Assembly: GCA_963708025.1 (NCBI GenBank)
Contig: CAVPSB010000016.1
Span: forward strand, 96,001 to 160,000
Length of the DNA stretch: 64,000 bases
Direction of reading: 5' to 3'
Source of the DNA: an uncultured Candidatus Rokubacteria bacterium
GTDB taxonomy: Bacteria; Methylomirabilota; Methylomirabilia; Rokubacteriales; DASRDR01
The translations under genes were made by a program, and so were the position numbers. Under the pieces are notes generated by a model. It saw only the letters and a program-made list of their open reading frames with translations. It searched no databases and was not told the origin of the DNA. Shown here in pieces: positions 20,609-55,022 of the stretch (position 1 is the first letter of the stretch; every line of letters begins with the position of its first letter).

Positions 20609-20689
20609 CGCCCCCGGCGAGCAAGTAGCCGGGGGAGCGTGCCTGCGGCTCACCCGGCTGGGGCACGACCGCCCCACCGTGGCGCCACC

Positions 20690-21262: not shown

Positions 21263-21311
21263 CCGGTCGGCGCCCGGGCGGCGGTCCGGCACCGGTCCCC
21301 GTCCGCGGCGG

Positions 21312-21749: not shown

Positions 21750-21819
21750 CGCCGGGCCCGCCCGTATCGCTCCGCCATCCACCCGCCGACTCCGGAAAAC
21801 CGACCGGGTCTCATCGCGG

Positions 21820-22293: not shown

Positions 22294-22348
22294 CGCGACT
22301 CCTTTCGGTGACGCGACCTCGTGTTCACCGGTGGCCGGAGGGGAGGTT

Positions 22349-22364
22349 TGCAACGAGAATGCCG
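22349..22364 (-). promoter_or_regulatory. sigma54 promoter CGGCAT-TCTCG-TTGCA
   Basis: GG-N10-GC with TTGCA, upstream of USP 22293. Confidence 0.7.
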
Positions 22365-22518
22365 CGTGGCGCCGGGGGCCAGACCGCCGCGCGGTCGCGC
22401 GGTTGGCCGGAGCCCATGCCTGACCCCGTCGCTTCCTGGGGCGTCGGTGCCCCGATCGAGGCGCCGCCGCCCCAGCCGCCGCCCCAGCCGGAGGTCGGCC
22501 ACGGTGGCGTGAGCCCCG

Positions 22519-22848
22519 TCACCGCAGGCTGGCTAGGTAGGCGGCGAGGGCGCGGATGTCCGCCTCGGTGAGGTCCAGCTTCGGCATATGGGCGCCTGGC
22601 TTGTGAACCGCCGGGTCGCGGAGGCGTCGGGACAGCTCACCCTCGGTCTGGAAGGAGCCGACGTGGGAGAGATCCGGGGCGATCGGGGTCCCGGTACCGA
22701 GAACCGTGTGGCAGCCGTAGCAGCCGTACTCGGTGTAGAGCCGGCGTCCCTGCGCGGCCGGTTGCTCGGGCGGTTGCGAAGCGACGGAGCAGGCGCTCAC
22801 GCTCAGGACGAAACCGACGAGTGCGATGGCCAGTCGTGAGGTGTTCAT
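22519..22848 (-). CDS. Monoheme class I cytochrome c, probably lipoprotein-anchored
   Basis: CYGCH heme motif, APDLSHVG, distal Met in HMPKL; signal peptide ending LSVSAC. Confidence 0.88.
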   Translation of the reverse strand: MNTSRLAIALVGFVLSVSACSVASQPPEQPAAQGRRLYTEYGCYGCHTVLGTGTPIAPDLSHVGSFQTEGELSRRLRDPAVHKPGAHMPKLDLTEADIRALAAYLASLR

Positions 22849-22861
22849 GCCGCGCTGGTCG

Positions 22862-22877
22862 TGCAACGCCAGTGCCA
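22862..22877 (-). promoter_or_regulatory. sigma54 promoter TGGCAC-TGGCG-TTGCA for cytochrome c
   Basis: Exact consensus 13 nt before ATG 22848. Confidence 0.8.
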
Positions 22878-22893
22878 CCGTCCACGGTCAGCC

Positions 22894-22909
22894 TGGCAGA
22901 GCGCTTGCT
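22894..22909 (+). promoter_or_regulatory. Divergent sigma54-like promoter TGGCAG-AGCGC-TTGCT for the receiver gene
   Basis: GG-N10-GC with TTGCT; back-to-back with the previous site. Confidence 0.6.
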
Positions 22910-22914
22910 TGACG

Positions 22915-23343
22915 ATGATCCCGATGCCTTCGCCCTTCGATGCCCACGGCCACGATCCACCGGGTTTCCCCCGCAAGGTGCTGGTCGTCGACGACGAGCC
23001 GGACATGCTGGAGAACGTGGCGCGCATCCTGCGGCGTGGCGCCTACGAGTGTCTGACCGCCGGGGGAGGCCGGGAGGCGCTGGTCATCCTCGCCCGCGAC
23101 CACCCCGATCTGATCCTCACCGATCTCCGGATGCCGGAGATGGATGGGCTCGCGCTCCTCCGCGCGGCGAAGCAGCTCTCGCCGCCCACCCCGATCGTCG
23201 TGTTCACCGCCTACGCCTCCGAGGCCGCCGCCCGGAATGCCCTCGCGGCCGGCGCCGCGGCCTTCCTGGCGAAGCCCTTCACGGCGCTCCAGCTCCTGGA
23301 GACGGTGCGATCGATGCTGAACGATGGAGGATCCGCCCCGTAA
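22915..23343 (+). CDS. Single-domain response regulator (start could be 22915 or 22924)
   Basis: VLVVDDE, ILTDLRMPEMDG, FTAY, AKPF. Confidence 0.9.
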   Translation: MIPMPSPFDAHGHDPPGFPRKVLVVDDEPDMLENVARILRRGAYECLTAGGGREALVILARDHPDLILTDLRMPEMDGLALLRAAKQLSPPTPIVVFTAYASEAAARNALAAGAAAFLAKPFTALQLLETVRSMLNDGGSAP

Positions 23344-23391
23344 GGCAATCGGCCCCCGACCCCCCGCGGGGTGGGCGGAGGCTCCGGGTCA

Positions 23392-26049: not shown

Positions 26050-26058
26050 CCGCCCGGC

Positions 26059-26669: not shown

Positions 26670-27119
26670 ATGACAGCTGAGCCGCTGACGCTCGAAGCGC
26701 TGACGCGACGTCTCGAAGGCCTGGAGCAGGCCCACCGCCGTCTGAAGCGCGGATTCGGGGTGATGGTGGTCGGGGTGGCCGGGCTCCTGCTGATGGGCCA
26801 GGGGTCCGACCGCGTGACCGCGGCGACGGTGGTCGCCCGGAGCGTCGAGACCCAGAGCCTGATGCTCCGCGATGCGACAGGAAAGATCCGGGCCCTGCTC
26901 GACGCCGACACGGTGGGCCCCGTGTCGCTCACCTTGTCCGACAAGGACGGCCGGGAGCGGGCCGCGATCGGCGTGGGACCGGCCGGCGGCGTCGGCGTGG
27001 TGTTCCGCGACCGGGAAGGCGTGATCCAAGCGGCGCTCGGGGTCAACCCTCAGGGCCGTCCATTCCACCTGCCGAAGCGGGGGCCGGGCGGCGAGGACGC
27101 CCGACCCCGCAAGGAGTGA
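26670..27119 (+). CDS. Hypothetical membrane-anchored protein with repeated LxDxxG beta hairpins
   Basis: Coiled N-terminus, one TM helix, repeats LRDATGKIR / LSDKDGRER / FRDREGVIQ. Confidence 0.7.
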   Translation: MTAEPLTLEALTRRLEGLEQAHRRLKRGFGVMVVGVAGLLLMGQGSDRVTAATVVARSVETQSLMLRDATGKIRALLDADTVGPVSLTLSDKDGRERAAIGVGPAGGVGVVFRDREGVIQAALGVNPQGRPFHLPKRGPGGEDARPRKE

Positions 27120-27195
27120 GCGGCTCCCCCGCTCCTTCCGGTCCCCGGGCCGGCGCGGCGCCCGGCCGCGTCCCATGGCGAGTACAATCGGGCGC

Positions 27196-28857
27196 GTGAT
27201 CGTACGCCGGCAGGCGGCCGTCCTCCTCGGGCTCCTCGTCGTCCTCCTCTTCGCGGGTCTGGGCGCCACCGCCCTCACCGACCGTGACGAGGGCGCCAAC
27301 GCCGAGACCGCCCGCGAGATGCGCGAGCAGGCATCCTGGGTCTCACCGACCCTGAACTACGTGCCGCGGTTCGCGAAGCCCCCCCTGGTCTACTGGCTGA
27401 TGGCCGGCGGCTACGCGACGCTCGGGGTCGGCGAGACGGCCGCGCGCCTGCCCTCGGCGATCGCCATCGCCGCCCTCGTCCTCCTCCAGTACGCCTTCGC
27501 CCGCTGGGCCTTCGACCCGTCCACCGCGTTCCGCGCCGCCCTCATCCTCTTGCTCACCGGCCTCGTGGTGGCGCTGGGACGCCTGGCCCTGACCGACGCC
27601 CTGCTCGTCCTGTGCACCACCGCGGCCGGCTTCGCCTTCTTCCGCGCTCACCACGGGCCCCCGCCGCGCCGGCCCTGGTACGCCGCGATGTACGGGGCCC
27701 TGGCCCTCGGCACCCTGACCAAGGGACCGGTCGGCGTGCTCGTGCCCGCGATTGTCATCGCGTTCTATCTGGCGGTGGCCGGCGGCTGGCGGCGAGTGGG
27801 GCGGGAGGCCGGCCTCCCCTGGGGTCTGGCCCTCTTTCTCCTCGTCGCCGGGCCCTGGTTCGCGGCGATGTGGTGGCTCCACGGCGGGACGTTCCTCGCG
27901 CGGGCGCAGGGCGAGACCCTGGGCCGGGTGTTCCGGACGGTCACCGGGCCGGGCGGCACCGTGCTCTTCTACCTTCCGGTCGTCCTCGTCGGCCTCTTCC
28001 CCTGGAGCGCGCTCCTGCCGGGGACGCTCGTCGAGGCTCTCCGCGGGGCGCGCCGGCGCGCCGCCGAGAATCGCGTGGAGGCGGCGGGCGTCTTCACGGC
28101 GATCTGGGTCGTGGCGGTGCTCGTCCTCTTCTCGCTCTTCCAGAGCCGACTGCCCCACTACGTGGCCCCGCTGTTCCCGGCCGCCGCGCTCCTGCTCGCG
28201 GCCCGGTGGCCCGCGCGCGTGCCGGCCATGGCGCGTGTCCTGCTCGCCGCGCTCGGGCTCCTGTGCGGCGGCACGCTCATCGCCGCCACCGCGCTCGGGC
28301 CGATCATGGCCCGGCTCCTCACCCCGGCCTATCCGGCCGCCCGCGAGGCGGCGCTGCCAGGCAGCCTGGTGGTCCTCGGGCTGCTGGCCCTGGCGACCGG
28401 GGCCGCGGCGCTCTTCCGGGATGGCCGGCGGCTGTTCCCCCTGCTGGCCACCGCCACCGCGCTCCTGTTCGCGGTCGGCGTCCACCTCGCGTGGCCGGCC
28501 TTCGATGCCCGCTTCGTGGCCCCGGCCGGCCAGCTCGCCCGCGCCGCCGGGGCCATGGCCCGGCCGTGCGACGACGTCGTGGTGATCGAGCCCTACCGGC
28601 CGAGCCTCGCCTGGTACGCCCGCCGTCCGGTGCACTTCGTCGGCATCCGCGATGCCTCCCGGCTCGCCGAGATCGCCGCTCGGCCGGGCCGGCTCTTCGT
28701 CCTCACGCCGCGGCTGCGGGTGGGGGATCTCCCGGCGGCCGTCGCCGCGCTGGCGCCGCTCGACACGCGCGGGGGCTACGTGCTGCTGGGCAGCGCTCCG
28801 GTCGGCCCGTGTCCCGGCGCCGCCCCGGAGGCCCGAGCGGGTACAATCACCCCATGA
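27196..28857 (+). CDS. ArnT/PMT-family (GT-C) glycosyltransferase (ORF extends to ATG 27175)
   Basis: DRDEG...AREM, RFAKPPLVYW, AARLPSA, LTKGPVG; many TM helices. Confidence 0.9.
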   Translation: MIVRRQAAVLLGLLVVLLFAGLGATALTDRDEGANAETAREMREQASWVSPTLNYVPRFAKPPLVYWLMAGGYATLGVGETAARLPSAIAIAALVLLQYAFARWAFDPSTAFRAALILLLTGLVVALGRLALTDALLVLCTTAAGFAFFRAHHGPPPRRPWYAAMYGALALGTLTKGPVGVLVPAIVIAFYLAVAGGWRRVGREAGLPWGLALFLLVAGPWFAAMWWLHGGTFLARAQGETLGRVFRTVTGPGGTVLFYLPVVLVGLFPWSALLPGTLVEALRGARRRAAENRVEAAGVFTAIWVVAVLVLFSLFQSRLPHYVAPLFPAAALLLAARWPARVPAMARVLLAALGLLCGGTLIAATALGPIMARLLTPAYPAAREAALPGSLVVLGLLALATGAAALFRDGRRLFPLLATATALLFAVGVHLAWPAFDARFVAPAGQLARAAGAMARPCDDVVVIEPYRPSLAWYARRPVHFVGIRDASRLAEIAARPGRLFVLTPRLRVGDLPAAVAALAPLDTRGGYVLLGSAPVGPCPGAAPEARAGTITP

Positions 28858-30617
28858 CGGGCCGCGTCGCACACCGTGATCCGGGCGGGGCCGAGAAGCG
28901 AGCCGCGCCCATCGGCGAACGACGCGGGGAGGAGCCGACCGCCGGCGCGCCCCGGTTGGCCGGGGCCGGGCTCATCGTCGCCCTGGGCCTCGCGCTCTAT
29001 CTGCCGGGGCTCGGCGCGGAGATCCTCCGCCATCCCCTGGAGGCGCGATACGCGCTGGCCGCGCGCGAGATGCTCCGCGGCGGCCCCCTGCTCGTCGCGC
29101 ATCTCTTCGGCGAGCTGTACCCGGACAAGCCCCCGCTCTACTTCTGGGTCACGGCGCTGTTCGGCTGGCTCGACGGGGGCCGGATCGGGGAGGCCACGGC
29201 GCGACTGCCTGCCGCGCTGGCCGCGCTGGCCGGACTGCTCCTGGTCTACCGGCTCGGCGGCGACCTCTTCGGCCGGCGGAGCGGTCTGCTGGCCGCGCTG
29301 GTGCTCGCGACCAGCAATCTCTTCTTCTGGTACGCGCGCCAGGGCCATCCGGATCAGTTCCTGACGGTATTCGTCACCCTCGCCTGTCTTGGCCTCTGGC
29401 GGGTGCTCGGCTCGCCCGGCGGTGCGGCCCGGAATGCCTGGGTCGCCGTCGCCTACGTGGCCATGGGGCTCGGCGTGCTGAGCAAGGGCCTCCTCGGGCT
29501 CGTCCTCCCGCTCCTCGCCGGGCTCGTGTACGCGGCGGCCACCGGTCCCCTCCGCGCGGTGCCGGCCCGCCTCCGTCTCGGCCCCGGCCTCGGGATCTTC
29601 CTGGCCGTCGTCCTCGCCTGGTACGGGCCGGCCGTCCTCCGCTACGGCACGAGCTATCTCTACGAGACGCTGGTTCACCAGCACGCGGTGCGTTACGCCG
29701 AGACGTGGGCGCACAAGGCGCCCTGGTACTACTACTTCGGCGAGTTCCCCTCGGGGTTCTTCCCCTGGGTACTCTTCCTGCCCGGGGCGTTCGTTCTCGG
29801 CTGGCGGCCCGGCGACGAGGAGGCGGGCGGCCGGGCCGGGTCGGGGTCCCGGCCGTTCCTCTTCCCGCTCGGCTGGTTCGTGGCCGGCTTCATCTTCTTC
29901 AGCTTCTCGTCCGGCAAGCGCGGCGCCTACCTGCTCCCTCTGTACCCGGCGGCGGCGCTCATGGTGGGCTGGGTGTGGGATCGGATGCTCGCGCGCGGAA
30001 CGGGCACCCGCTGGGTGGGGATCCCGCTGGGGGTAATGAGCGGGGCCGCGGCCTTCCTGGCGTTCGGCCTCCTGGCCATCGGCCTCGGCCTCGTGTCCCG
30101 CCGGCTCGTCCCGGGACGCATGGTGCACACGCTCGTGCCCGGCGACCCCCGGCTCCTGGGGGTGGCGGTCCTGCTCCTCCTCGCCGGCGCCGCCGCCGTG
30201 TGGCTCCTGTGGGCGCGCGGACGACCGGCCGGCACCTTCGCGGCGCTGGTGGCGGTGCAGGCGGTCCTGCTGCTCACGGTCGCCACCGTGCGCGCCCCGC
30301 AGTACGAGGCCGAGTATCCCGTCCGGGCGTTCGTCGCCCGTGTCCGGGCCGCGGTGCCGCCCGGCCAGCCGCTCTTCTCGCTGCTCTACGACTACGACAA
30401 CCTCGTCGCCTTCTACCTGGACCGGCCCATCCGGCCGCTGCCCGGCCCGTCGGAGCTGCTCGCCACCCGGGCCGCCGACGGGCCGCGCTACGGCCTCGTC
30501 GATAACGACGACCTCGCGATCCTGGAGCAGCCGGGCGTCTCCGTGCTCGCCGAGACCCGGCTCGGTCCCAAGCGCGTCGTGCTGATCCGCCTCGACCCCC
30601 GCCCGCCCGCCTCCTGA
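28854..30617 (+). CDS. Second ArnT/PMT-family glycosyltransferase
   Basis: EARYALAAREM, YPDKPPLYFW, ARLPAA, LSKG, PWYYY, KRGAYLLP. Confidence 0.9.
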   Translation: MTGRVAHRDPGGAEKRAAPIGERRGEEPTAGAPRLAGAGLIVALGLALYLPGLGAEILRHPLEARYALAAREMLRGGPLLVAHLFGELYPDKPPLYFWVTALFGWLDGGRIGEATARLPAALAALAGLLLVYRLGGDLFGRRSGLLAALVLATSNLFFWYARQGHPDQFLTVFVTLACLGLWRVLGSPGGAARNAWVAVAYVAMGLGVLSKGLLGLVLPLLAGLVYAAATGPLRAVPARLRLGPGLGIFLAVVLAWYGPAVLRYGTSYLYETLVHQHAVRYAETWAHKAPWYYYFGEFPSGFFPWVLFLPGAFVLGWRPGDEEAGGRAGSGSRPFLFPLGWFVAGFIFFSFSSGKRGAYLLPLYPAAALMVGWVWDRMLARGTGTRWVGIPLGVMSGAAAFLAFGLLAIGLGLVSRRLVPGRMVHTLVPGDPRLLGVAVLLLLAGAAAVWLLWARGRPAGTFAALVAVQAVLLLTVATVRAPQYEAEYPVRAFVARVRAAVPPGQPLFSLLYDYDNLVAFYLDRPIRPLPGPSELLATRAADGPRYGLVDNDDLAILEQPGVSVLAETRLGPKRVVLIRLDPRPPAS

Positions 30618-32692: not shown

Positions 32693-33451
32693 CTACGCCT
32701 GCGGCTGGTGAATGACGAGCGGAACACCCCGTGTCGCGGCCGGACCGAGGACGAGTCCCACGGCCTCCTGCCGGAACGCGACCTTCTGGTCCTGGAGGCG
32801 GGTGGCGAGGCCGGTGAGATCCCGGGTCATGAGCCGCAGCATGGAGATGCGCGGCTTCCCCGAGGTCGCGCTGGCTGGGGAGAGCTGGAGCATGACGTCG
32901 CCACTGGCGAGCTGGGCCAGCGTCCAGTCGGGCCGCGACATGCGGATGGTCAGGCTGAACAGGTCGCGGTAGAGGTGGGCGGCGCCCTCCACGCCCTCCA
33001 CGACCAGGTGGACGACGGTCAGCGTCAACGGGGCGTCGGCCGGCGGGGTCTTCTCGATCGGCGTGGCCACCTCGATCAGGATCCCGGCGCACGCCCGGGG
33101 GTGGATGAAGGCGATCATCCCGGCCAGCCCCTTCCGCGGGCGGGCGTCGATCATCTCGACCCCGGTGCCGTCGAAGCGCTTGACGTCACGGGCGACGTCG
33201 TCCGACTCGAAGCACAGGTGATGCAGCCCCTCGCCTTGGCTCTGGAGGTACCGTCCGACGGGCGAGTCGGGCGTCGTCGGCTCCAGCAGCTCGATCTCGA
33301 TCGACCCGCAGGCCAGGAGGGCGGCCCGGACCCCCTGGTCCTTCACCTCGGCTTCGCGGGTCACCGACAGGCCGAGCGTGTCACGCCACAACGCGTAGCC
33401 GCTGGCGAGGTCCTGGACGACGAGGCCGATGTGATGGACGCGCTTGATCAT
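32693..33451 (-). CDS. VOC/glyoxalase protein: methylmalonyl-CoA epimerase-like domain plus a second degenerate VOC domain
   Basis: HHIGLVV, DQGVRAA, IELLEP, EGLHHLCF, AFIHP...GILIE. Confidence 0.85.
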   Translation of the reverse strand: MIKRVHHIGLVVQDLASGYALWRDTLGLSVTREAEVKDQGVRAALLACGSIEIELLEPTTPDSPVGRYLQSQGEGLHHLCFESDDVARDVKRFDGTGVEMIDARPRKGLAGMIAFIHPRACAGILIEVATPIEKTPPADAPLTLTVVHLVVEGVEGAAHLYRDLFSLTIRMSRPDWTLAQLASGDVMLQLSPASATSGKPRISMLRLMTRDLTGLATRLQDQKVAFRQEAVGLVLGPAATRGVPLVIHQPQA

Positions 33452-33513
33452 GGCCGTTCCCGGGCCCTCACCAACGTACCCCAACGGGCAGGGTCATTTC
33501 AAACGGTCTCCGC

Positions 33514-34626
33514 CTACTTGAGCCCGAGCAGGCTGAAGACGGGCACCGGCTTGAGAAACCCCTTGAGCGGCAGCGCGCCGACCGGCTCCGCCGCGATCAG
33601 GGCCTCGACCGCCCCCAGGACCCGCCCGGAGATCAGGATCTGGCCGGGCTTCGCCTCCCCGCAGAGGCGGAAGGCGAGGTTGGTCACGGTGCCGATCGCG
33701 CCGTAGTCCCAGCGCCCTTCGAAGCCGATGGCGCCGATGGTGGCGTAGCCCTGGGCGATGCCGATGCCGATGCCGAGGTCGTCACCGCGCCGGCGCCACT
33801 TCTCGGCCAGGCCCGCCATCGTCTCCCGCATCGCCACCGCCATCCGCACCGCGCGCTCCGCGTGATCGGGGACGGGCACCGGGTCGTTGAAGAAGATCAT
33901 CATCCCGTCGCCGGCGAACCGCTCGAGGGTCCCCTCGTGGGCCAGGACCTCCCGCCCCATCGCCCCGTGGTACTCCCGCAGCACTCCCATGACCTCTTCC
34001 GGCTCGGCCGTCTCGGCGAAGGCCGTGTAGCCCCGGAGATCGAGGAACACCACCGTCAGGTCCCGCCGGTGGGTCTTCAGGGGATCCTCGGCGCCCCCGG
34101 CCAGGATCAGCTCGGCGAGCTGCGGGGAGAAGAACCGCTTGAGCCGGTCCAGCCGCTCGAGCTGGCCCACCTGGTCCTGGACGCGCTGCTCCAGGGTCTG
34201 GTTCCAGTCGGCGAGCTGGCCGGCCTGCGCCTGCACGGTGTCGTAGAGGATCTTGATCCGCAGGAGCGAGCGGACCCGGGCGAGCAGCTCGGGCTGGTTG
34301 ATCGGCTTCGTGAGGAAGTCGTCGGCCCCGGCCTCCAGGCCCCGAACGCGCTCCTGCCCCGGATCGAGCGCGGTGACCATCACGATCGGCAGGATGCCGG
34401 TCGCCGGGTTGGCGCGGATCTTCTGGCACACCTCGTAGCCGCTCATGCCCGGCATCACGACGTCCAGCAGGACGAGATCCGGCCGGTCCGCCTCCACCCG
34501 CGCCAGCGCCTCGGCGCCGGAGGCGGCGGTCAGGACCTCGTAGCCTTTGGCCGTCAGGAGATCGGCGAGGAGCCGGACGTTGAGCGGGGTGTCGTCGACC
34601 ACGAGGATGCGGGCGGCGGCGGTCAC
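33514..34626 (-). CDS. Response regulator - class III adenylate/guanylate cyclase fusion
   Basis: REC (ILVVDD, LDVVMP, TKP), coiled linker, [24 protein letters not shown]. Confidence 0.93.
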
Positions 34627-35018
34627 GCGGCGCCTCCCGGGCTCCGTCCGCGGTCCAGCGTGGCCCGCACGGCCTCCAGGAACTCCCGGATGCTGATCGG
34701 CTTGGACTGGTACCCGTCGAAGCCGGCGGCCATGATCGCCTGACGGTTGTGGGTCATCGCGGAGGCGGTGACCGCGAGCACCGGGATGTCGCGGGTGCGG
34801 GCGTCGCCGCGGAGGATCTTCAGCGCGGCGATCCCATCCATGCCGGGGAGCTGGATGTCCATGAGGATCAGCGCCGGGCCCGATTCCTGGGCCACCCGGA
34901 TCCCCTCCTCGGCCGTCTCGGTCTCCACCGTTCGGTACCCCTTGGCCTGCAGCACGTCCCGGACGAGCTTCCGGTTCTTCTCGTGGTCCTCGACGATCAG
35001 GATCAGCTCGCCGGCCAT
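34623..35018 (-). CDS. Single-domain response regulator (DivK-like)
   Basis: [28 protein letters not shown]. Confidence 0.92.
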
Positions 35019-37938
35019 GGTCGCACCGGGATGGTGAAAGTGAACGTCGAGCCCTTTCCGACCTCGCTCTTCACCCAGATCCTCCCTCCGTGCAGCTCGA
35101 CGAAGCGCCGGGCCAGCGCGAGGCCCAGGCCGGTGCCCTCGCGCTTCCGCGCGTAGTCGCCGCCCGCCTGGCGGAATTCCTCGAAGATGACCTCCTGGTC
35201 CTCGGGCGCGATGCCGATCCCGGTGTCGGTCACCGATACCTCCACGAAGCCGTCGGCCGGCACGGCGGCGACCGCGACCCGCCCGCCTTCCGGGGTGAAC
35301 TTGACGGCGTTGGAGAGGAGGTTGAGGAGGATCTGCTTGATCTTCCGCTCGTCGCCGGCCAGCTCGCCGACCCGGGGATCCACCGTGAGGCCGATCGTGA
35401 GCCCGTGGCGCTCGGCGCGCTCCCGGACCAGCGTGAGCGCGTTCTCCAGGGCGGCCGGGAGGCTGAAGCGGGCCAGCTCCAGCTCCATGCGGCCCGCCTC
35501 GATCTTGGACAGGTCCAGGATGTCGTTGATGAGCGAGAGGAGGTGGCGGCCCGAGGCGTGGATGTCCTGCATGTACTCGGCCTGCTTCGGGTTCAGCTCG
35601 CCGAACATCCGCTCCGACAGGACCTCCGAGAAGCCGATGATCGCGTTCAGCGGCGTCCGCAGCTCGTGCGACATGTTGGCGAGGAACTCGGACTTGTGGC
35701 GGCTGGCCGCCTCCAGCTCCGCGCTCTTCCCCTCCAGCTCGCGGAAGAGCCGGGCGTTCTGGATGGCCAGGGCCGACTGGGCGGCGAAGGTCCGGAGGAG
35801 GTCCATCGTCTCGGGCGGGAAGGCGCCCGGCGACTTGCGGGACAGGACCAGGCCCGCCGAGGATGCGATCCTCGCGAAGCAGCGGCACCGCCAGCACCGC
35901 GCGGAAGCCGGCCCGCGGCAGGATGTCGCGCAGCGGGCCCACGTAGGCGCCCTCCGCCGCGATGTCGGGAATCTGGATCGGCTCGCGGGTCACCGCGGCC
36001 TGCCCCACCGCCCCTTCCCCCGGACGCAGCGGGCGGCTCCGGAGCGCCTCCACCAGCGCCTCGTCGAACCGGTGCGTCGCCCGCAGCTGCATCTGTCCGG
36101 TGGCCTCGTCGTACTCGTAGATGGCACCGCCGTCGGTCCCCGAGAGCTCGTCGGCCCGCGACACGATGGTCGTCAGCACCGTCTCCAGGTCCAGGGTCGA
36201 GCTGACCGCCTGGCCGACCTCGCCGAGCGCCCGCAGCTCCTGGACGGACCGGGCGAGCTCGCCGGTTCGGGCCTGCAGCTCCTGGAAGAGGCGAACGTTC
36301 TCGATGGCGATGACCGCCTGGGCCGCGAAGGTTTCCAGCAGCTTGATCTGCTTCTCGGAGAACGGTCGGACATCGAGTCGCCGGATCAGGATGGCCCCGA
36401 GTGGCGCGCCCTCGCGCAGGAGGGGTGTGGCCAGCGTCGTCCGATGACCGACATCCTTCTGGTAGGCCTTGCCTTCCGGGATACTCGGTGTCCGATTCGG
36501 CGGCGAGATCGTGAACGTGGACCGTCCGCCGGTCCACGACCGCGCGCCCGGTGACCCAGTTCCGCGGCTGACCGGCATCCCGCGCTGGAAGACGTCCGGC
36601 CGAATGCCGAGCGATCCGTCGGGAGGCCACCAGGCGAAGGATCGCCTTGAACGCGAAAGATCAGCGCATCGGTGGCCTCGCAGAGCTTGGCCGCACTGCT
36701 CGGCGACCGCGTCGAGCACCGGCTGGATGTCCGTCGGCGAGCTGGAGATGACCCGCAGGATCTCCGCCGTCGCCGTCTGCTGCTCCAGGGCCTCGGTGAG
36801 GTCGCGCGTCCGCTCCTCGACCTTCCGCTCCAGGCCGGCGTAGGACTCGTGGAGCTCCGCGGCCATGCTGTTGAACTGCCGGGCCAGCGCCTCCAGCTCG
36901 TCGCCGGTCCGGACGTCGATCCGCTGGTCGAGGGCGCCGGCTCCGATCCGGGCGGCGCCGGCCTGGAGCGCGCGGATGGGCGTGACCATCCGCCGGGCGA
37001 GAAGGAGGCTGGCGAGTACCGCAAGACCGATACCGAGCAGGATGAGGATGGCCGTCCGTTTGATGGAGGCCGTCAACGGCTCGAACGCCTCGGCGAGCGG
37101 AAGGTCCACGAACACGAGCCAGCCGAGCGGCGCGATGAGGGCGGAGGCCGTCGAGGACCTGCCGCCCGCTCAGGTCCCGGGCCACGATCGCTTCCTCGCG
37201 CTCCGCGGCCGGGCGGCCGGCGGCGGCCTGGGTCGCCTTCACGTGGGGCAACGAGCACATGTCCGTCTTCTGGAGGACCAGGCTGATGTCCGGGTGGGCG
37301 ATCAGGAGGCAGCGGGCGTCCACGACGTACGCGTGGCCGCCGCGGCCGACCTGACCGACCTTGATCTGGGAGACGACGTCCCAGATGAACTTGAGGTTGA
37401 CCTCGGCCACCGTGACGCCGGCCTCGTCCCCCCGCCCGGCGACCGAGAGGGTCATGTACGGCTCGGATTCCTTCCGGAAGTAGACGGGCCCGAACCAGGT
37501 CGTCCCCGGCCGGGCCTCGCGGAACTTCGGCTCCCGCGCGACGTCGATCCCGCTGCCGACCCGGTCCATCGCCAGCCGGGACACGTTGAGCTGCTCACGG
37601 CCGGCGCCGTCGAGGAGGCTGATCTCGGTGACGGCGGGGACCTGCCGGAGGAGCCGGAGGTAGTCGAACCGGCGCTGCTCGAGCGTCGACCGGACGCCGA
37701 TCTGGGGCTGGCTGGCCCAGCCGACCTGGCGCTCGATCTCCTTGATGAACTGCTCGATCCGGGTCGAGGCCGCCAGCGCCTTCTCACGCTGGAGGGCCCC
37801 CAGCGCCGCCTTGTTCTCCTGGTAGGAGAAATAGATCTCGAGGAGGCCGCTGGTGAGCAGGGCCCCGCTGACCAGGCTGACGAAGAGGACGACGTACTTT
37901 CGGAAGAGCCGCCCGCGCGGCTCACGCACGGACGCCAT
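35003..37938 (-). CDS. Membrane sensor kinase (TM-Cache-TM-HAMP-GAF-GAF-HisKA-HATPase), split by several frameshifts
   Basis: Pieces in ORFs 36661-37938, 34623-37115 and 35003-35806 join at about 37155, 36690-36470 and 35855; [25 protein letters not shown]. Confidence 0.85.
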
Positions 37939-37997
37939 CGCGCCTCCAGGACCGTATCATTCGGCACCCATTGTAGCGCGGTCAGGCAGCCGCCCGG

Positions 37998-39503
37998 TCA
38001 CGCCTTCACGGGAAGCGTGACGGTGAACGTCGAGCCCTTCCCGACCTCGCTCTGGAGCCGGATCGTGCCCCCGTGCAGCTCGGCGAATCGCCGGGCGAGC
38101 GCGAGACCCAGTCCCGTCCCTTCCTGCTTCCGGGCGGTGTCCGAGCCGGCCTGACGGAACTCCTCGAAGATCGCCGCCTGGTCCTCGGAGGCGATCCCGA
38201 CTCCCGAATCGGCGACCGCGATCTCCACGACGCCGTCGCCCGGCGCCGCGGTCACCCCGATCCGGCCCCCGTCCGGGGTGAACTTGACCGCGTTGGAGAG
38301 GAGATTGAGGAGGATCTGCCGGATCTTGCGCTCGTCGCCCACGAAGTCGCCCAGCCGGGGATCGAGGTTGAGCTCCAGGGTGACCCCGTGGCGGACCGCC
38401 CGCTCGCGGACCAGGGTCAGGGCGCTCTCGATCGCCGCCGGCAGGTCGAACGGACCGAGATCCAGATCCATCCGGCCGGCTTCGATCTTCGAGAGGTCGA
38501 GGATGTCGTTGATGAGGGAGAGGAGGTGCCGCCCGGAGGCGTGGATGTCCCCGACGTACTCCATCTGCTTCGGCGTTCAGCTCGCCGAACATCCGCTCCT
38601 GCAGCACCTCGGAAAAGCCGATGACGGCATTCAGCGGGGTGCGCAGCTCGTGCGACATGTTGGCGAGGAACTCGGACTTGTGGCGGCTGGCGGCCTCGAG
38701 CTGCTGGTAGAGCCGGCCCAGCTCCTCGCTCATGCGGTTGAGGTTCGTGGCCAGGGTCCCCAGCTCGTCCCGGTTCGCCACCTCGACCCGGCCGGAGAAG
38801 TCGCCCGGCCGCGATCTCCCGGAGCCGCGCGTCCATCTGCTTGACGGGGCCGATCAGCGACCACGAGATCGCGTAGCCGAGGACCAGGGCCAGGCCGATG
38901 CTCCCGACCGCGAACCCGATGACCACCCGCCGGGAGGTCGACGTACGCGTCGTGGCTCGTCTCGATGCTGGCCACCATGTCGGCCTCGGCCTTGTTCACC
39001 AGCTCGTTGGTGAGCCGCTCGAGGCGGTCGGCCAGCGGGCTGGCCCGGGCGATCTGCAGGTCGCGCCCCTCGGCGGCCTTGCCCGCTCCGGATCAGCTCG
39101 ATCACCTGGGTGACGACCTTGATGAACTCCTCGTAGTCCTCGCGGACGCGGCCGAGCAACTCCACCTCGTCCTTGGCCACGAACTGCAGCCGGTCGAGGT
39201 CGTAGCCGAACTGGTTGAGCTGGCGCAGGGTGGCCTCCAGCGTGCGCTCGTCGGGAACGAGGAGCGCCGACGCGACGCTGTAGAGCTGGCCGGTGGTGTC
39301 GTGCTGGAGCTGGCGGTAGGCGGCGATCTTGCGCTGCAGCTGCACCAGGTCCTCGGCGCGGTGGTTGGCGCCGGCTGAGCACTCGGAGACCGACGGCGCC
39401 GACGATCGATCAGGAGCACGACGATCGCCAGGAAGGCGACCAGCAGCTTGGCGTGGACGGCGACCGGGACCCGGGCGACCAGCCGGGGCAGCCAGTCGGT
39501 CAT
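37998..39503 (-). CDS. Membrane sensor kinase (TM-helical sensor-TM-HAMP-HisKA-HATPase), split by several frameshifts
   Basis: [53 protein letters not shown], spread across several ORFs. Confidence 0.85.
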
Positions 39504-40112
39504 CGCGGTGCCGCCCTCGCGGAGCAGGCGCCTGGAGGTCGCGCAGGAACTCGTCGGGATCGAACCGGACCCCGAGGTACTGGACCCGGAGGATGCCGCT
39601 GCGCGATCGACGAGCGACGTCAGGAACGTGTGGTCCACGTCCCCGCGCTCCTGCTTCCGGTAGACGACGCCGTAGCGCCGGGCGACGTCCTGGATCTCGG
39701 CCGGCGTCCCGGTGAGGAACGCCCACCCCGCCGGGTTGGCCCCGTGGGACCCGGCGTACCGGCGCCAGCACGTCCGGCGTGTCCCGCTCGGGGTCCACCG
39801 TGATCGAGACGAAGAAGACCGGGGCCCGAAGCCGGCCCCAGGCGGGCCTGCACGCCGGCCAGCTTGGCGGTCAGCAGCGGGCAGGTGTCGGTGCAGCTCG
39901 CGTAGATGAAGGTGACGGCGACCACCTTGCCGCGGAGGGCGGCCAGGGTCAACCGATCCCCGGTCTGGGCGGTGAGGCTGAACTCCGGGGCCGGGCCGAT
40001 CTTCGAGAGACGGGCATCCTGGCCCGGCTGGTGGCCGAGGCCCGGCGCCGGCCAGGCGGTGCAGGCGAGGAGGAGGAGAAGCGCGGTAGTCCCGCCGCGT
40101 CAGGCTCGGCAC
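39500..40112 (-). CDS. SCO/SenC copper-binding thioredoxin-fold protein, frameshifted
   Basis: APEFSLT, TFIYASCTDTCP (CxxxC), ITVDPERDTP, VDHT. Confidence 0.85.
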
Positions 40113-40115
40113 CCG

Positions 40116-41116
40116 TTAGCCTTTGAGCTCCTTCTTCAGCTCGGCGAGGAACCGCCAGTCGGTGCCCTGGGCGATGATCCGCTGCGGGCTCGCCTTGATC
40201 ATCCCGATCTCGAGCAGCCGGAGCGCGTAGAACCGGACGGTATCCTCCGGGTTGTAATCGCGCCATCTATCGTACGGGATTTCCTTCATGGTCTGGAGCG
40301 CATACTCGTACTCCTTCGTGTAACCCCGGTTCACCAGGAGCCGGGCGGCCCGCTGCGGCTCGAGGGCGCACAGGGTCGGCGGCTTTGAGGATCGCCCGCA
40401 GCGCCCGCTTGGCGGCCACCGGAGACTTCCGGATGAACTCGCGGTTGGCCGCCAGCACGCAGCAGAAATACTGAGACCAGGGGCGGTCCACGGCGCTGTT
40501 GACCACCACGTGTCCGATCTTCTTCGCCCGCAGCTCCTGGGGAACCGGGGGAAAGCCGATCAGGGCGTCCACCCGCCCCTCGGCCAGGAGCCGGGCGGAC
40601 TCCGCCGGGTGATGGATCAGCCAGTTGATGTCCTTTCGGGGGTCGAGGCCGACATGGGCGGCCATGCTGGACAGGAACACGTGATGGGCCGATCCCATTC
40701 CGGGGATGCCGACCGTCTTCCCCTTCAGGTCGCGGATCGCCCGGACCCGATCGGTCCCGACCACCTCGAAGCAGCCGACGTGCACGCCACCCAAGAGCAC
40801 GACCGGGAGCCCGGCATCCACCTGGATGAGGAAGGGCGCGACGAACGCCATGCTGATGTCGAGGTCGTTGGCGGCGAAGGCCGGGTACGGATTGGCCTCA
40901 GGGAAGCTCACGTACCGGACGTCGGTGAACCCCTCGGCGTGCAGCAGCTCGTCGGCGATGTACTGGGGCGCCACGCAGATGCCGGCGATCTGCGACAGCC
41001 GCAGCCGCGTCGTCTCCGGCGGCGGCTCCGCATCGACCGGCGTCGCCGTCCACGCCGAGCAGTCCCGCGGCGCCAGCCACGGAAAGGCCACTGAGGAAGC
41101 GACGGCGGGTCATCAT
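40116..41116 (-). CDS. Tat-exported NMT1/SsuA-like solute-binding protein (third copy), frameshifted
   Basis: TRRRFL signal; EPPPETTRLRL, ICVAPQY, HVGCFE, DLKGKTV, RPWSQYFCC, DWRFLAELKKELKG. Confidence 0.85.
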
Positions 41117-42117
41117 CCCTTCAGCTCCTTCCTCAGCTCGTTCAGGAACCGCCAGTCCGTGCCCTGGGCGATGATCTTCTGCGGGCTCGACTTGATGAGA
41201 CCGGTCTCGTGCAAGCGGAGCGCGTAGAATCGTAGGGTGTCTTCGGGATCGTACTCGCGCCACCGCGCGTACGGGATCATCGCGTCAGCGCCTGAAGCGC
41301 GTAGTCGTAGCTCGGGGTGAAATCCTGGTCAACGAGGAGCCGGGCGGCTCGCTCGGGTTCGAGGCTGCAGACCTGGTTGGCCTTCAGGATCGCTCGCAAC
41401 GCGCGCTTCGTGGCCATCGGACGGGCGGACGAACTCCCGGTTCGCGACCACGGTACAGCAGAAGTACTGGGACCAGGGCCGGTCGAGCGTCGTGTTGACG
41501 ATCACCCGCCCGACCTTCTTCGCCCGGAGCTCCTGCGGCTCCGGTGGAAAGGCCATGAAGGCGTCGATCTCCCCCGCGGCCAGCCGTCGCATGGACTCAT
41601 CGGGCGGCATCGCGACGAAGTTGACGTCGTGGCGGGGATCGAGACCCACGTGGGCGAGCATGCTGACGAGGAACGCGTGAGGTCCCGACTCCGAGGCTCG
41701 GCACGGCGACTGACGTGCCCTTCAGGTCGCGGATCGCGCGGACCCGGCCGGTCGCGAAGAGCTCGAAGCAGCCGACGTGGAGTCCGGCCACCATCGTGAG
41801 CGGGGCCCCCCTGTCGACCCAGATGACCAGGTTCGGCGCGGTACGACCCCGATGTCGGCCTCTCCGGACGCCAGGGCCTCCCGGATGGCGTCGCCGCCGG
41901 TCGTGGTCCACGTAGTCGATCGCGCTGAATCCCTCGGCCGAGAGCAGCTCCTCGGCCACGTACGGTGGGCGCGAGGCAGAGGGCTGGCGCGCGGACGAGC
42001 CGGACCCGCGGGATCTCGGCGGCGACTCCGCGTGCCGCCGGCGCCGGCCACGCCGCCAGCAGACCTGCCGCGCCGATCCCGGTGAGGCCGCCCCAGGAGC
42101 GCCCGCCGGGTCATCAT
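41113..42117 (-). CDS. Tat-exported NMT1/SsuA-like solute-binding protein (second copy), frameshifted
   Basis: MMTRRALL; LCLAP, LHVGCFELF, RPWSQYFCC, DWRFLNELRKELKG; ATGA overlaps on both sides. Confidence 0.8.
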
Positions 42118-42629
42118 CCCTTCAGCTCCTTCTTCAGCTCGGTCAGGAACCGCCAGTCGGTCCCCTGGGCGATGATCTTCTGGGGGCTCGACCGGATCAT
42201 CCCCGCTTCGTGCAGGCGGAGCGCGTAGAATCGGACCGTATCCTCCGCATCGTAATCGCGCCAGCGCCCGTATGGAACATCCCGCATGGTCTGCAGTGTG
42301 GAGTCGTAATTCTTGGCGAAGCCTCGGTCGGTCATGACCCGAGCGGCTCGTTCGGGCTCCTGTGCACAAAGCATGTCGGCCTTGAGGATGGCTCGGATTG
42401 CGCGTTTCGTGGCGACCGGGTACTTGGCCACAAACTGCCTGTTCCCGGTCACCAGATGAGGAGCCAGACAGAGGCTCGGAAACTTCAGGAGCCTGAGCCG
42501 CGTCGTCTCGGGCGGCGGCTCGGCGGCGGCCGGCCCCCCGTCCAGCCCGAAGAGCCCGGCCGCTCCGCTGACGGCCAGGCCGCCCAGGAACTCTCGCCTG
42601 GTCCACGCTTCGGCGCGTCGGCTGGTCAT
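42114..42629 (-). CDS. Solute-binding protein paralog (first copy) with an in-frame internal deletion of about half the protein
   Basis: TRREFL signal and LCLAPH join directly to GNRQFV...DWRFLTELKKELKG; 171 aa versus about 330 aa for its neighbours. Confidence 0.75.
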   Translation of the reverse strand: MTSRRAEAWTRREFLGGLAVSGAAGLFGLDGGPAAAEPPPETTRLRLLKFPSLCLAPHLVTGNRQFVAKYPVATKRAIRAILKADMLCAQEPERAARVMTDRGFAKNYDSTLQTMRDVPYGRWRDYDAEDTVRFYALRLHEAGMIRSSPQKIIAQGTDWRFLTELKKELKG

Positions 42630-42646
42630 GGCCACTCGTCAGCGGC

Positions 42647-42948
42647 TCAGTGCGCCGTCAGGAACGCCCGGGCGTGGGTCAGCTCCGGCCGGTCGGTGTC
42701 GGCCTGGGCGGCCAGCGAGACGAGCTGCCCGTAGTACTGCTTCGCCGTCGCGGTGTCACCGGCCAGCTCGGCCGCCCGGGCGGCGCCGCGGAGGCCATTG
42801 AAGCGGTTCGGCTCCCGGCGCAGCGAGGCCTCGTACTCGACCAGGGCGGGTCGGGCCTGGCCCAGCTCGAGCAGCAGGTCGCCGAGCATCTCGCGAGCCG
42901 GCAGGACCGGGGCCGGGGTGACCGGATGCTTCTCGGTGGAGTCCTCGA
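42647..42948 (-). pseudogene. C-terminal fragment of a TPR protein
   Basis: [27 protein letters not shown]...[14 protein letters not shown]; no own start, abuts the truncated activator. Confidence 0.7.
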
Positions 42949-43856
42949 CCGATCTCGTCCAGGAAGAGGGTCCCGGGGTGGGCCATCTCGAACTTGCCCC
43001 GCCGGGCCGCCGTCGCCCCCGTGAACGCCCCCTTCTCGTGGCCGAACAGCTCCGCTTCGAGCAGCGTCGCCGGGATGGCGGCGCAATTGATGACGACGAA
43101 CGGGGCGGCGGCCCGGTCACTGGCGTCGTGAATGGCCCGGGCCACCAGCTCCTTGCCCGTCCCGGTCTCGCCCAGGATGGTCACGGTCGCGCGGGTGGGG
43201 GCGGCCTGCATCGCCTGCTCGAGCACCCGCTGGAGGACCGGCCCCCCCACCAGGCCCGGAAAGTGATGGAACGCCGCCCGCCGGAGCGCCGCGTTCTCGC
43301 GCTGGATCGTCTCCTTCTCCTGGCGGAGCGACTGGTAGAGACGCGCGTTCTCCAGCGCGACGGCGATGTTACCGGCGACCGCCTCCAGGAGCGCCAGGTC
43401 CTCCGGGGTGAAGGTCCCCTCCTTCTTGTTGATGACCTGGGTGACGCCGATGATCCCCGACCGGGTCCGGAGCGGCGCGCAGATGAGGCTGCGGCTGGCG
43501 GTGCCGACCTGCCGGTCCACGGCCTGGTAGAAGCGCGGCTCCCGCGAGACGTCGGGTACGAGCATCGAGCGGCCTTCCCGGAGCACCACGCCGCTGATCC
43601 CCTGGCTCGCCGGGAAGCGGATCTCCCGGATCCGCTGGGAGGCGTCGAGCCGCTCGTCGGTGGAGACCGGGAAGTAGAACTCGTCGCGCCCGGGGTCGTA
43701 GAGGATGATGGAGGACGTCTCGGCCCCCAGGAGGCTCTTGAGCCTCTCCATCATGACCGGCAGCAGCGCCTCGACGTCCACCAGCTCGTGGAAGGAGCGG
43801 CTGGTCTCCAGGAGGAGGGCGAGCGTGTCGCGGGTGCGATCGGGAACGGCGTCCAT
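42949..43856 (-). pseudogene. GAF - sigma54 enhancer-binding protein truncated just after Walker B
   Basis: [30 protein letters not shown], then unrelated sequence; no arginine-finger region or HTH. Confidence 0.82.
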
Positions 43857-43997
43857 CGTCGGACCCGGTCGCCCTGCGGGGCGGCCGGCGTGGAGACTGT
43901 ATGCCGCCGCCCGGGCCAGGGTCAAGCGCCGCCGACCGCTCTACCGTCCACCGCTTCGCCGGGGGCCGGCGGGTCGGAGTGGTACACTGAGGCCGGC

Positions 43998-44291
43998 ATG
44001 AGCCACGGCATGGGAAGGTCCGGCCTGCTCCTGGCGCTGGTCCTGCTCTGGGCCCTGTCAACGCTTCCCCAGCCGGGGTGGAATGGCCTGCCTGGTCTTA
44101 CGGGGATCGCCGGTGTCGCCGACGACGCCGGCCGCCGCTCGCTGTCCGCGCTGGATGCCATCTTCGGTGACTTCATCTCGTCGCTCGCCCCCGTCCTGAT
44201 CCTGCTGGCCGCGACCACCCCCCTCCGGGAAGTCGCCACCGCGCCCCACGCGGTCCCGGCGTTCCAGACCAGAGGACCTCCCCGCCGCTAG
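43998..44291 (+). CDS. 97-aa exported/membrane peptide ending RGPP-RR (candidate ribosome-arrest leader)
   Basis: Hydrophobic N-terminus GLLLALVLLWALS; C-terminus PAFQTRGPPRR*; TACACT -10-like element upstream. Confidence 0.6.
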   Translation: MSHGMGRSGLLLALVLLWALSTLPQPGWNGLPGLTGIAGVADDAGRRSLSALDAIFGDFISSLAPVLILLAATTPLREVATAPHAVPAFQTRGPPRR

Positions 44292-44430
44292 CGTTCCGAG
44301 GAGCCCGTACCGCCCCCGGGGCGGCCAGCCGTCCTCCGAAGGTGAACGGCCGTCCCCGAGGGTCGCGTCTCGTCGTCCGCGAGGCGAACGGGTGCTCGAC
44401 GATGTCCGCGGAAGAGGAGGAGGGTGGTCA

Positions 44431-44859
44431 ATGAAGTGGTTTCGGGACACGATCACGGTCCAGACCGGGCAGAGCCAGGAGTTCATCGACGTCACCAAGC
44501 GGGTCCGCGACGTCGTCGCCCGATCCGAGATCCGAAACGGGATGCTGATCGTGAACTCCCTGCACACGACCATGGCGCTGTTCATGAACGAGTTTCAGTC
44601 GGCACTCATCGATGATCTCGGCGAGATCCTCCAGCGCCTGGTCCCCCGACGGGACGGCTACCGGCACGACGATCCCCGGTTCTCGGACTGCGACCGCGCC
44701 AACGGCCACGCGCATCTCCGGGCCACGCTGCTCGGCCGCAGCGTCGCGGTGGCGGTAGCGGACGGGGAGCCGGCGCTCGGGACCTACGAGAGCCTGGTCA
44801 TCGCCGAGCTCGATGGGCCGCGGACCCGCACCCTGGGCGTCCAAGTGATGGGCGAGTAG
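44431..44859 (+). CDS. yjbQ: YjbQ/UPF0047 family protein
   Basis: FIDVT, HTT, NE, NGHAHLRA, ELDGPR; strong RBS. Confidence 0.9.
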   Translation: MKWFRDTITVQTGQSQEFIDVTKRVRDVVARSEIRNGMLIVNSLHTTMALFMNEFQSALIDDLGEILQRLVPRRDGYRHDDPRFSDCDRANGHAHLRATLLGRSVAVAVADGEPALGTYESLVIAELDGPRTRTLGVQVMGE

Positions 44860-54893: not shown

Positions 54894-55022
54894 GTCGCCT
54901 ACTGCCGTCCACTGGCGCCCACTACCAGACGTCCATGAAACTGGCCATCCGCGGGCGATTCCGCTAGAGTAGCGGCAGTGACCTCCGGCCGCCTCACCGG
55001 CCGTGGCAGCGAGAAAGGAGCC

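Follow-up and report, generated by a model that had tools for sequence, protein, structure and literature searches.

Our analysis identified, between positions 33514 and 42629 of a 64,000-nt stretch of DNA from an uncultured Candidatus Rokubacteria bacterium (GenBank assembly GCA_963708025.1, contig CAVPSB010000016.1, positions 96,001 to 160,000; hereafter the window), one copy of a widespread and previously undescribed gene module. Its genes encode tandem proteins of the NMT1/SsuA fold with twin-arginine translocation (Tat) signals, a dedicated SCO paralogue and a kinase with a four-helix bundle (4HB); they are translationally coupled, and no transporter gene stands among them. We consider it likely that the locus is a two-component sensor dependent on these substrate-binding proteins (SBPs), probably thiol- or metal-based, and that in this lineage its output would be a cyclic nucleotide. 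A full-text search of the literature, with subscription journals outside its coverage, found nothing on the module.

The window has a G+C content of 72%, its contig (C16) belongs to an 8.17-Mb assembly of 49 contigs, and its relatives are labelled Rokubacteria/Methylomirabilota. Genes were placed by Pfam scans of stop-to-stop frames and by tblastn with intact proteins of relatives, frames in this high-GC DNA being chosen by the GC3>GC1>GC2 rule plus homology. This gave eight genes, every one on the minus strand (Table 1). One and the same ATGA overlap links SBP1 to SBP2 and SBP2 to SBP3, the receiver and cyclase genes overlap by GTGA, and the receiver starts before kinase 2 ends. Pfam found no ATP-binding cassette (ABC) permease or ATPase domain in this region, and none in the 28 frames scanned around it (17.2 to 57.6 kb). 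A preliminary description made from the sequence had proposed this gene content, order and single strand, as well as the absence of an ABC permease or ATPase, and the coordinates and scans bear out both. It had also spoken of three SBPs joined by ATGA; both overlaps are there, but the proteins are two full-length SBPs and one remnant (SBP1). What it had called a HAMP kinase is one, and carries in addition a conserved periplasmic 4HB sensor, recognised in relatives as Pfam 4HB_MCP_1.

The module recurs well beyond this genome. Among 41 related genomes searched for relatives of SBP3, close relatives, 71-77% identical to it, form tandem runs. One genome (G029) preserves an intact order of GAF kinase, SBP, a protein of 552 amino acids (aa), four SBPs, SCO, 4HB/HAMP kinase, receiver and receiver-cyclase, and four others (G001, G020, G021 and G034) show variants of this order in which the GAF-GAF part forms a dCache kinase of its own or else is joined to the 4HB kinase. 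When species-representative genomes were scanned, 577 stretches matched, and 73 loci were retained. Their labels include Rokubacteria/Methylomirabilota, Binatia, Burkholderiales/Betaproteobacteria, Alphaproteobacteria, Acidoferrum and Eisenbacteria, some of which may be wrong where the genome was assembled from a metagenome; cultured Mesorhizobium species are among the carriers. The 73 loci hold from one to nine binding-protein copies on the same strand, and one of them (L085) holds 12 when both strands are counted.

Conservation of the SBP-SCO-kinase order across genomes had been proposed as a check in the preliminary description. In the 48 loci with at least 3 kb of downstream DNA, SCO lies next to the array on its downstream side in 34, a kinase follows on the same strand within 3.5 kb in 36, and both follow in 33; in the 39 loci with at least 6 kb, a receiver-cyclase lies within 7 kb after the array in 16. 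Three of the loci that this rule counts as kinase-less (L040, L056 and L085) do have SCO and a kinase, but in another orientation. The same description had asked whether orthologous SBPs sit with permeases, and Pfam scans of nine kinase-less loci (L022, L038, L042, L045, L067, L074, L076, L086 and L089) found a cognate permease or ATPase at none of the nine; at L067 the opposite strand carries an unrelated SBP_bac_1 system, and L076 has five SBPs and SCO with nothing more of the module. Eight loci of the related genomes, also scanned with Pfam, likewise showed no cognate transporter, only unrelated Opp-, sugar- or CUT1-type systems.

Several loci of this survey have features of their own. The 552-aa protein, TPR-like at its C-terminus, lies inside or beside arrays at L013:8331-9986 (G029), L029, L057, L085 and L087; it has no Pfam or NCBIfam match and may be a further component of the module. 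At L022 (2-7534 and 9842-20742), seven Cys-bearing binding proteins immediately follow a cytochrome c maturation operon with CcmB, CcmC, CcmE, CcmF, a Redoxin and CcmH/CycH, and the 20 kb of this locus contain no kinase. L016 (G020:C79:78000-97999) has about nine or more binding-protein genes and SCO, interrupted by IS66 and rve-type transposases, and several of its binding-protein copies are fragments. At L017:4137-8802 (G013), genes for GrdA, GrdB and component B of glycine/sarcosine/betaine reductase adjoin one binding-protein gene and an SCO gene of opposite orientation; since the GrdA and GrdB of known systems are selenoproteins, in-frame TGA may occur in L017.

The output of the module varies by lineage, and a cyclic nucleotide is not a property of the module as a whole. 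The three Burkholderiales/betaproteobacterial loci scanned have a hybrid kinase, in two cases with a divergent REC-GerE DNA-binding regulator. Mesorhizobium newzealandense, on the other hand, has a 4HB-HAMP-GAF-GAF kinase and a receiver-cyclase. At these loci, too, no cognate permease or ATPase was found. A plasmid of Sinorhizobium mexicanum (pEmeITTGR7a) carries the module under generic RefSeq names (three genes for 'ABC transporter substrate-binding protein', one each for 'SCO family protein' and 'GAF domain-containing protein', and two for 'response regulator'), and the binding protein is also found on plasmids of S. americanum, S. fredii NGR234 and Microvirga. The earlier proposal that the output is a cyclic nucleotide rather than a DNA-binding regulator therefore fits this lineage and Mesorhizobium/Sinorhizobium and does not fit the Burkholderiales examined.

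The binding proteins belong to a large family. All full-length relatives scanned match Pfam NMT1_2/NMT1, as does a piece of the window's SBP3 (63.7 and 50.3 bits; cut-offs 24.7 and 20.5), and the NCBIfam models SsuA_fam (83-85 bits, cut-off 163.5) and taurine_ABC_bnd (34-41 bits, cut-off 304) are matched below their cut-offs. The family comprises at least 8000 clusters at 90% identity (E <= 1e-10) and 1056 representatives at 50% identity (E <= 1e-30). In the window, the N-terminus of SBP1 reads TRREFLGGLAVSGAAGL, which is Tat-type, as is the start that SBP2 and SBP3 share (MMTRR). A pattern search found the Tat motif in 31 of 33 frames of relatives, the two misses being one protein with MIARRRVL outside the position window and one without its N-terminus, and of 60 diverged representatives 55-56 retain the twin-arginine RR. 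Thus, the binding proteins carry predicted Tat signals. An AlphaFold2 model (predicted local distance difference test, pLDDT, of 87.7) and its best solved matches, NrtA, CmpA, TauA, SsuA and Thi5 (14-18% identity, Foldseek E ~1e-15, TM-score 0.6-0.7), support a two-lobe class II binding-protein fold, and the closest solved relatives by sequence are the same five proteins, TauA, SsuA, CmpA, Thi5 and NrtA (E 5e-10 or weaker). In a rough FastTree of 58 segments, rooted at midpoint and carrying no support values, the paralogues of one array fall in different clades common to several genomes, the window's SBP3 clustering with one protein each from G001, G020, G021, G029 and G034.

These proteins share a conserved set of cysteines, which the preliminary description had placed at CxAP, HVGCFE, YFCC and a later xC. 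All are visible in SBP3, where the last reads LC; SBP2 keeps HVGCFE and YFCC, and the motifs are invariant in 30 of 30 full-length relatives (31 of 31 with one added sequence, from genome G038, which enters into this count alone). The description holds for these but not for SBP1, from which HVGCFE and YFCC are deleted along with the core. The alignment of the 30 full-length relatives, whose first sequence supplies the residue numbers used here, has a mean column identity of 65% and 49 invariant columns, including C57, H122, C125, E127, D220-R221-P222-W223, Y226-F227-C228-C229 and C259. We then looked at two wider samples, the 120 closest clusters and the 60 diverged representatives mentioned above (50% identity, 320-410 aa). 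C57, H122, C125, C228, C229 and C259 are present in all 120 close clusters, and E127 in 119. Among the 60 diverged representatives, C57, H122 and C125 are each kept in 55, C228 in 57 and C229 in 56, as against 41 for C259 and 40 for E127. Since five residues stay in 55-57 of these 60, the core signature is four Cys and one His.

We located this signature on a known ligand pocket by profile alignment to TauA (chain 6ssy_A, where index + 21 gives the published numbering, as verified on Gly61, Gly79, Glu106, Thr132 and Asp205). In TauA, Glu106 is a hinge residue essential for taurine binding and Leu204 lines the pocket, as given in the part of PMC6906117 that treats these residues. E127 aligns with the hinge Glu106, C229 with Asp205 and C228 with Leu204, and C125 stands two residues ahead of E127 on the same strand. 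C57 falls, approximately, in the beta1-alpha1 loop, which supplies Gln30/Ser32 in TauA. The alignment thus puts three Cys at or beside predicted ligand-pocket positions and a fourth in a pocket loop. TauA Thr132 is matched by residue 152, which belongs to the most variable loop (147-153), so that the predicted picture is one of an invariant thiol/His cleft surrounded by loops that vary from paralogue to paralogue. Because the paralogues form old subfamilies with differing cleft loops, those of one array probably differ in ligand or affinity. The earlier suggestion of a possibly metal- or thiol-dependent receptor gains support at the level of sequence from the retention of Cys4-His in 55-57 of the 60 diverged proteins and from the three Cys at or beside the TauA pocket.

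These data bear on whether the SBPs are ordinary transport proteins for a sulfonate-, nitrate- or pyrimidine-like nutrient, serving a distal NitT/TauT-type ABC transporter, with a kinase that regulates uptake or shares the binding protein in a dual function. Pfam and NCBIfam place them in the NMT1/SsuA_fam group, below the NCBIfam cut-offs, public records name the homologues 'NitT/TauT family transport system substrate-binding protein', and dual-function binding proteins are known (described in a section of PMC8050422). At the same time, no cognate permease or ATPase lies beside any array examined, be it in the window, at the nine kinase-less loci or at the relatives' eight loci; where TauA has the ligand residues Asp205 and Leu204, these proteins have invariant Cys; and up to 9-12 copies per locus together with a dedicated SCO are unlike a transport operon. 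We regard transport as improbable, and annotation of these genes as components of ABC transporters is unsupported by their context.

The SCO protein of the window keeps the CxxxC motif, as CTDTCP, and the DH motif when aligned with intact relatives. Relatives score 100-123 bits against Pfam SCO1-SenC, and the window's protein, interrupted by frame breaks, is matched as three pieces of 39.5, 18.9 and 18.0 bits. It is the third SCO1 homologue in this genome. It shares its Pfam family and its CxxxC and His motifs with the SCO1/SenC/PrrC copper chaperones and thiol-disulfide oxidoreductases, but its gene, unlike theirs, stands between those of a binding-protein array and that of a kinase, and not with cytochrome oxidase genes.

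Kinase 1 carries the likely partner of the binding proteins. Its sensor matches the conserved 4HB of relatives, and the periplasmic domain has a mean column identity of 71% over 11 sequences from Rokubacteria, Mesorhizobium and Burkholderiales; conservation this strong is easier to reconcile with a protein partner than with a small ligand that varies. We modelled two kinase periplasmic domains (residues 36-187 of the kinase alignment) together with one mature binding protein (residues 40-342). The docking score was 0.76 (runs of 0.76, 0.73 and 0.77) against 0.07 for the best of three controls, a mark reached by 116 of 157 solved complexes and by 2 of 215 mismatched pairs. At least 96% of the contacts are common to the runs, and the partner has a pLDDT of at least 89. 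In the model, the interface bridges both kinase protomers, with contacts at residues 53 and 89-103 of one and at 155-176 of the other, and the binding protein makes contact through residues 136-138, 164-166, 219-221 and 225 and its conserved C-terminal helices (296-321). Interface residues that are invariant or at least 90% conserved number 19 of 25 on the kinase and 11 of 23 on the SBP, compared with ~51% and ~34% in the respective whole domains. The model therefore predicts that the binding protein docks on the periplasmic 4HB of kinase 1. The preliminary description had cast the SBPs as receptors for kinases, and this idea is strengthened by the SCO/kinase order at 33 of 48 loci, by the lack of a permease at nine of nine kinase-less loci and by a complex model that beats its controls, the docking itself being a prediction of that model.

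Downstream, the receiver-cyclase is 72% identical to the G029 protein over 408 aa, and its cyclase domain matches Guanylate_cyc with 60.7 bits against a Pfam cut-off of 21.9. The acidic pocket of the receiver, the TNLAFR motif and further cyclase-motif residues are kept in six of six aligned receiver-cyclases. These motifs would supply the metal-binding Asp and the transition-state Asn/Arg of the family. The usual Lys position reads Arg, which leaves ATP and GTP both as possible substrates.

The fold would also allow the SBPs to be periplasmic enzymes or cofactor carriers, like Thi5 or MqnD-type proteins, with an SCO-matured Cys/His metal centre; the two-component genes would then control their expression or answer the same stress, with no direct docking. 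The solved neighbours do include the enzyme Thi5; Tat export, four to five conserved Cys with a His, and a dedicated third SCO paralogue fit a cofactor protein; and some arrays have no kinase, such as those of L076 (five SBPs and SCO only) and L022 (seven SBPs after the ccm operon). We nevertheless consider this rather unlikely, given that the periplasmic domain of the kinase is about as conserved across phyla as the binding proteins, that the complex model passes with conserved faces in predicted contact, and that a cyclase output in this lineage, in place of a transcription factor, misfits simple autoregulation.

Most genes of the window's copy are broken. SBP2, SBP3, SCO and both kinases (five genes) are each split across two or more frames by single-base indels, and the receiver and receiver-cyclase are the only module genes, besides the in-frame SBP1 remnant, that read through undivided. 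SBP2 runs through frames -2/-1/-2 with further out-of-frame stretches, SBP3 has two breaks (about 41055 and 40374), kinase 1 at least five, and kinase 2 two (about 37150 and 35850), the last being collinear in three frames with an intact 968-aa kinase of G021. Parts of the locus occur in 20 public runs from 15 studies (best share of sampled words 0.36), and we aligned short-read Logan contigs of four soil metagenome runs from four studies (X1, X2, X3 and X20) to positions 33000-44500. These contigs differ from the window by 2-19 other letters per 274-432 bases. In the 12 of 72 indel rows available, exactly one base is missing from the contigs at 39408, 39370, 39087, 38808 and 38574 in kinase 1 and at 40089 and 39512 in SCO, in three to four of the four runs each, and at 40374 in SBP3 in one of the four. 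All eight sites coincide with frame changes found by tblastn, and single-gap contigs span both kinase 2 breaks. Kinase and cyclase paralogues on contigs C12, C13, C22 and C25 of the same assembly are frame-split as well.

Since contigs of four independent studies lack the extra base at eight break sites, the frame breaks look like assembly errors, that is, inserted bases, and not decay. We asked whether homopolymers account for them and rejected this, runs of five or more bases being no more frequent in 33.5-44 kb than in the whole window; some breaks lie at CC/CCC and others at no run, and so the error type is not tied to homopolymers. Contig depth, joints and loose ends were not used, as they stem from conserved kinase/AAA+ segments of other organisms.

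SBP1 and the DNA upstream of it are a different matter. SBP1 consists of ~60 N-terminal and ~113 C-terminal residues joined in frame, with ~170 core residues gone; by tblastn, residues 4-63 and 232-344 of a relative abut at 42455/42450 in a single frame. Upstream lies a scar in which an activator gene, whose Sigma54_activat match covers only profile positions 7-104 of 168 and is cut at about 42944, abuts the last ~96 aa of the TPR-like protein whose G029 form has 552 aa (residues 454-549 alone are matched by tblastn). The contigs of the four runs failed to resolve the SBP1 deletion or the upstream scar, and both may be real. Three longer copies of the TPR-like protein are found elsewhere in the genome, on C26, C34 and C37 (matches of ~490-520 residues).

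Taken at face value, at least a dozen frame breaks in 9 kb, compared with several open frames of 2.6-3.5 kb elsewhere in the window, and two deletion scars (~42452 and ~42944) would make the locus a decaying pseudogene cluster in which frameshifts, SBP1 deletion and upstream truncations are all real, and at E <= 1e-20 it holds the sole copy of the binding-protein subfamily in the genome. This we think very unlikely. It is contradicted by the missing base at all eight listed sites in independent studies and by the frame-split paralogues on other contigs, and on both sides of the breaks the GC bias by codon position persists, as does a 57-78% identity to the proteins of relatives. For this genome in general, such breaks call for polishing before genes are called pseudogenes.

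Several observations weigh against a binding-protein-dependent sensor at an otherwise intact locus. A receiver-cyclase lies within 7 kb in only 16 of the 39 loci, and 12 of the 48 have no kinase by our criterion, some being single genes in unrelated surroundings. The docking score is the model's own confidence, obtained with our own alignments and with 2+1 chains that differ from the calibration, so that a pass does not show binding; and since SBP-kinase complexes of other families have been solved (TorT-TorS and XylFII-LytS), the model may in part echo a remembered likeness. The placement of C57 is approximate because this residue lies outside the stretch aligned with TauA. Finally, the breaks at ~42098, 41683, 41055, 39820, 37150 and 35850 fall outside the eight sites confirmed individually, and the SBP1 deletion and upstream scar suggest some real erosion.

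Weighing all of this, we still favour the sensor, and the mechanism that we infer for it, including the content of the site, the role of SCO, the signal, the phosphotransfer and the nucleotide made, would run as follows. The binding proteins would be exported folded via Tat, and the Cys4-His site in the cleft between the lobes would bind or react with the signal. The likeliest candidates for this signal are a thiophilic metal or metalloid, an oxidant or a thiol-reactive compound; the SCO protein would load or reset the site. A loaded binding protein would dock across both protomers of the kinase bundle, much as TorT does on TorS, and alter autophosphorylation. Phosphate would then move to the stand-alone receiver and the receiver-cyclase, with synthesis of a cyclic nucleotide, and kinase 2 (dCache-GAF-GAF) would add further input to the same receivers. 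A bolder version, which we put forward tentatively and hold to be doubtful, is that these are a new class of Tat-exported periplasmic metalloprotein sensors on the binding-protein fold, whose Cys4-His cleft centre (Cu-thiolate or Fe-S, with the tandem Cys-Cys) is matured or reset by SCO and which, once docked on the 4HB kinase, would report copper, redox or a thiophilic toxicant; with as many as a dozen old paralogues, an array would give graded or multi-ligand input, with a cyclic-nucleotide readout in Rokubacteria and rhizobia.

Table 1. Genes of the module and neighbouring features in the window.
Feature	Positions	Strand	Evidence
SBP1, remnant (internal deletion) of an NMT1-like binding protein with Tat signal	42114-42629	-	tblastn, translation
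SBP2, NMT1-like binding protein with several frame breaks	41113-42117	-	tblastn; Pfam NMT1_2 on one piece
SBP3, NMT1-like binding protein with all five Cys motifs	40116-41116	-	Pfam NMT1_2/NMT1
SCO1/SenC-family thioredoxin-fold protein, three frames	~39500-40112	-	Pfam SCO1-SenC on three pieces; alignment to intact relatives
Kinase 1: transmembrane segment (TM), periplasmic 4HB, TM, HAMP, HisKA, HATPase	37998-39503	-	Pfam, tblastn
Kinase 2: dCache, HAMP, GAF, GAF, HisKA, HATPase	35003-37938	-	Pfam; tblastn
Stand-alone receiver (REC), intact	34623-35018	-	Pfam Response_reg; 63% identity to G029 protein
Receiver + class III nucleotidyl cyclase domain, intact, 370 aa	33514-34626	-	Pfam Response_reg + Guanylate_cyc
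Upstream scar: GAF + sigma-54 AAA+ activator, cut mid-domain	42659-43925	-	Pfam, tblastn
Glyoxalase/VOC-family gene	32696-33484	-	
Two tandem PMT_2-type glycosyltransferase genes	27025-30617	+	
Three universal stress protein genes, cytochrome c, stand-alone receiver	19595-26058		
Full P-type cation ATPase	23395-26058		
Separate Cation_ATPase_N fragment	20564-21361		
Receiver-histidine kinase, then ECF-type sigma factor, then RskA-type anti-sigma factor	54939-57605	+	

Of the neighbours listed in Table 1, the glyoxalase/VOC-family gene adjoins or lies near the module, and such a gene is also found in the Sinorhizobium plasmid and at two other loci (L092:18472-18831, L042:4007-4465 and L071:16100-16705), which may be coincidence. 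At the PMT_2-type genes, AT skew is strong (-0.36 in 28-30 kb), and both strands have long open shadow frames.

Among known systems, the module is most like TorT-TorS, the sensor of trimethylamine N-oxide (PDB 3O1H), and XylFII-LytS (PDB 5XSJ), in which the gene of a signalling-only binding protein adjoins that of a kinase with a helical-bundle periplasmic sensor. The likeness is one of gene adjacency, by which binding-protein-dependent sensors are recognised: in 36 of the 48 loci the binding-protein gene stands beside a kinase with TM-4HB-TM-HAMP. Two TorT bind a TorS sensor dimer, according to the section of PMC8050422 on that system, and in our model the binding protein is likewise predicted to sit on a dimeric kinase bundle. 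The module differs from both systems in its NMT1/SsuA-type family, predicted Tat export and Cys4-His cleft, multi-copy old paralogues, dedicated SCO and, in this lineage, putative cyclase output. The 2021 review counts 13 families of signalling binding proteins in the part that surveys them (PMC8050422), the terms 'NMT1' and 'SsuA' having no occurrences in its main text, and in the part of a 2023 survey that lists NMT1 the family appears only with thiamine and pyrimidine ligands. Compared with the transport proteins TauA, SsuA, NrtA and CmpA, the module's SBPs share the fold, the Pfam families and E127 aligned with the hinge Glu106, but they stand at 14-18% identity, have no ABC partner beside them, carry Cys in place of pocket residues and bear a twin-arginine signal.

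A further comparison is with AioX, in which a cysteine is the key liganding residue. AioX (PDB 6EU7) resembles the module's proteins as a binding-fold protein that senses a thiophilic inorganic ligand, such a ligand being only proposed for the module. In the AioX-AioS-AioR system, periplasmic AioX stimulates a two-component system on sensing As(III), with no transporter involved, as outlined in a section of PMC8050422. AioX differs in belonging to the Phosphonate-bd family (PF12974), in being a single gene without SCO, in the sCache-like sensor of its kinase and in an output that is aioBA transcription.

Only a handful of systems are known to sense through a separate binding protein, and the module would add an abundant family to them, one that is unusual for its kind in its predicted Tat export, its conserved putative Cys4-His cleft with an SCO partner of its own, and its multi-copy arrays. 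Moreover, the module lies on plasmids and chromosomes of cultured rhizobia, which makes the content of the site, the signal and the number of paralogues per kinase directly testable. These results point to an unstudied route of extracellular sensing.

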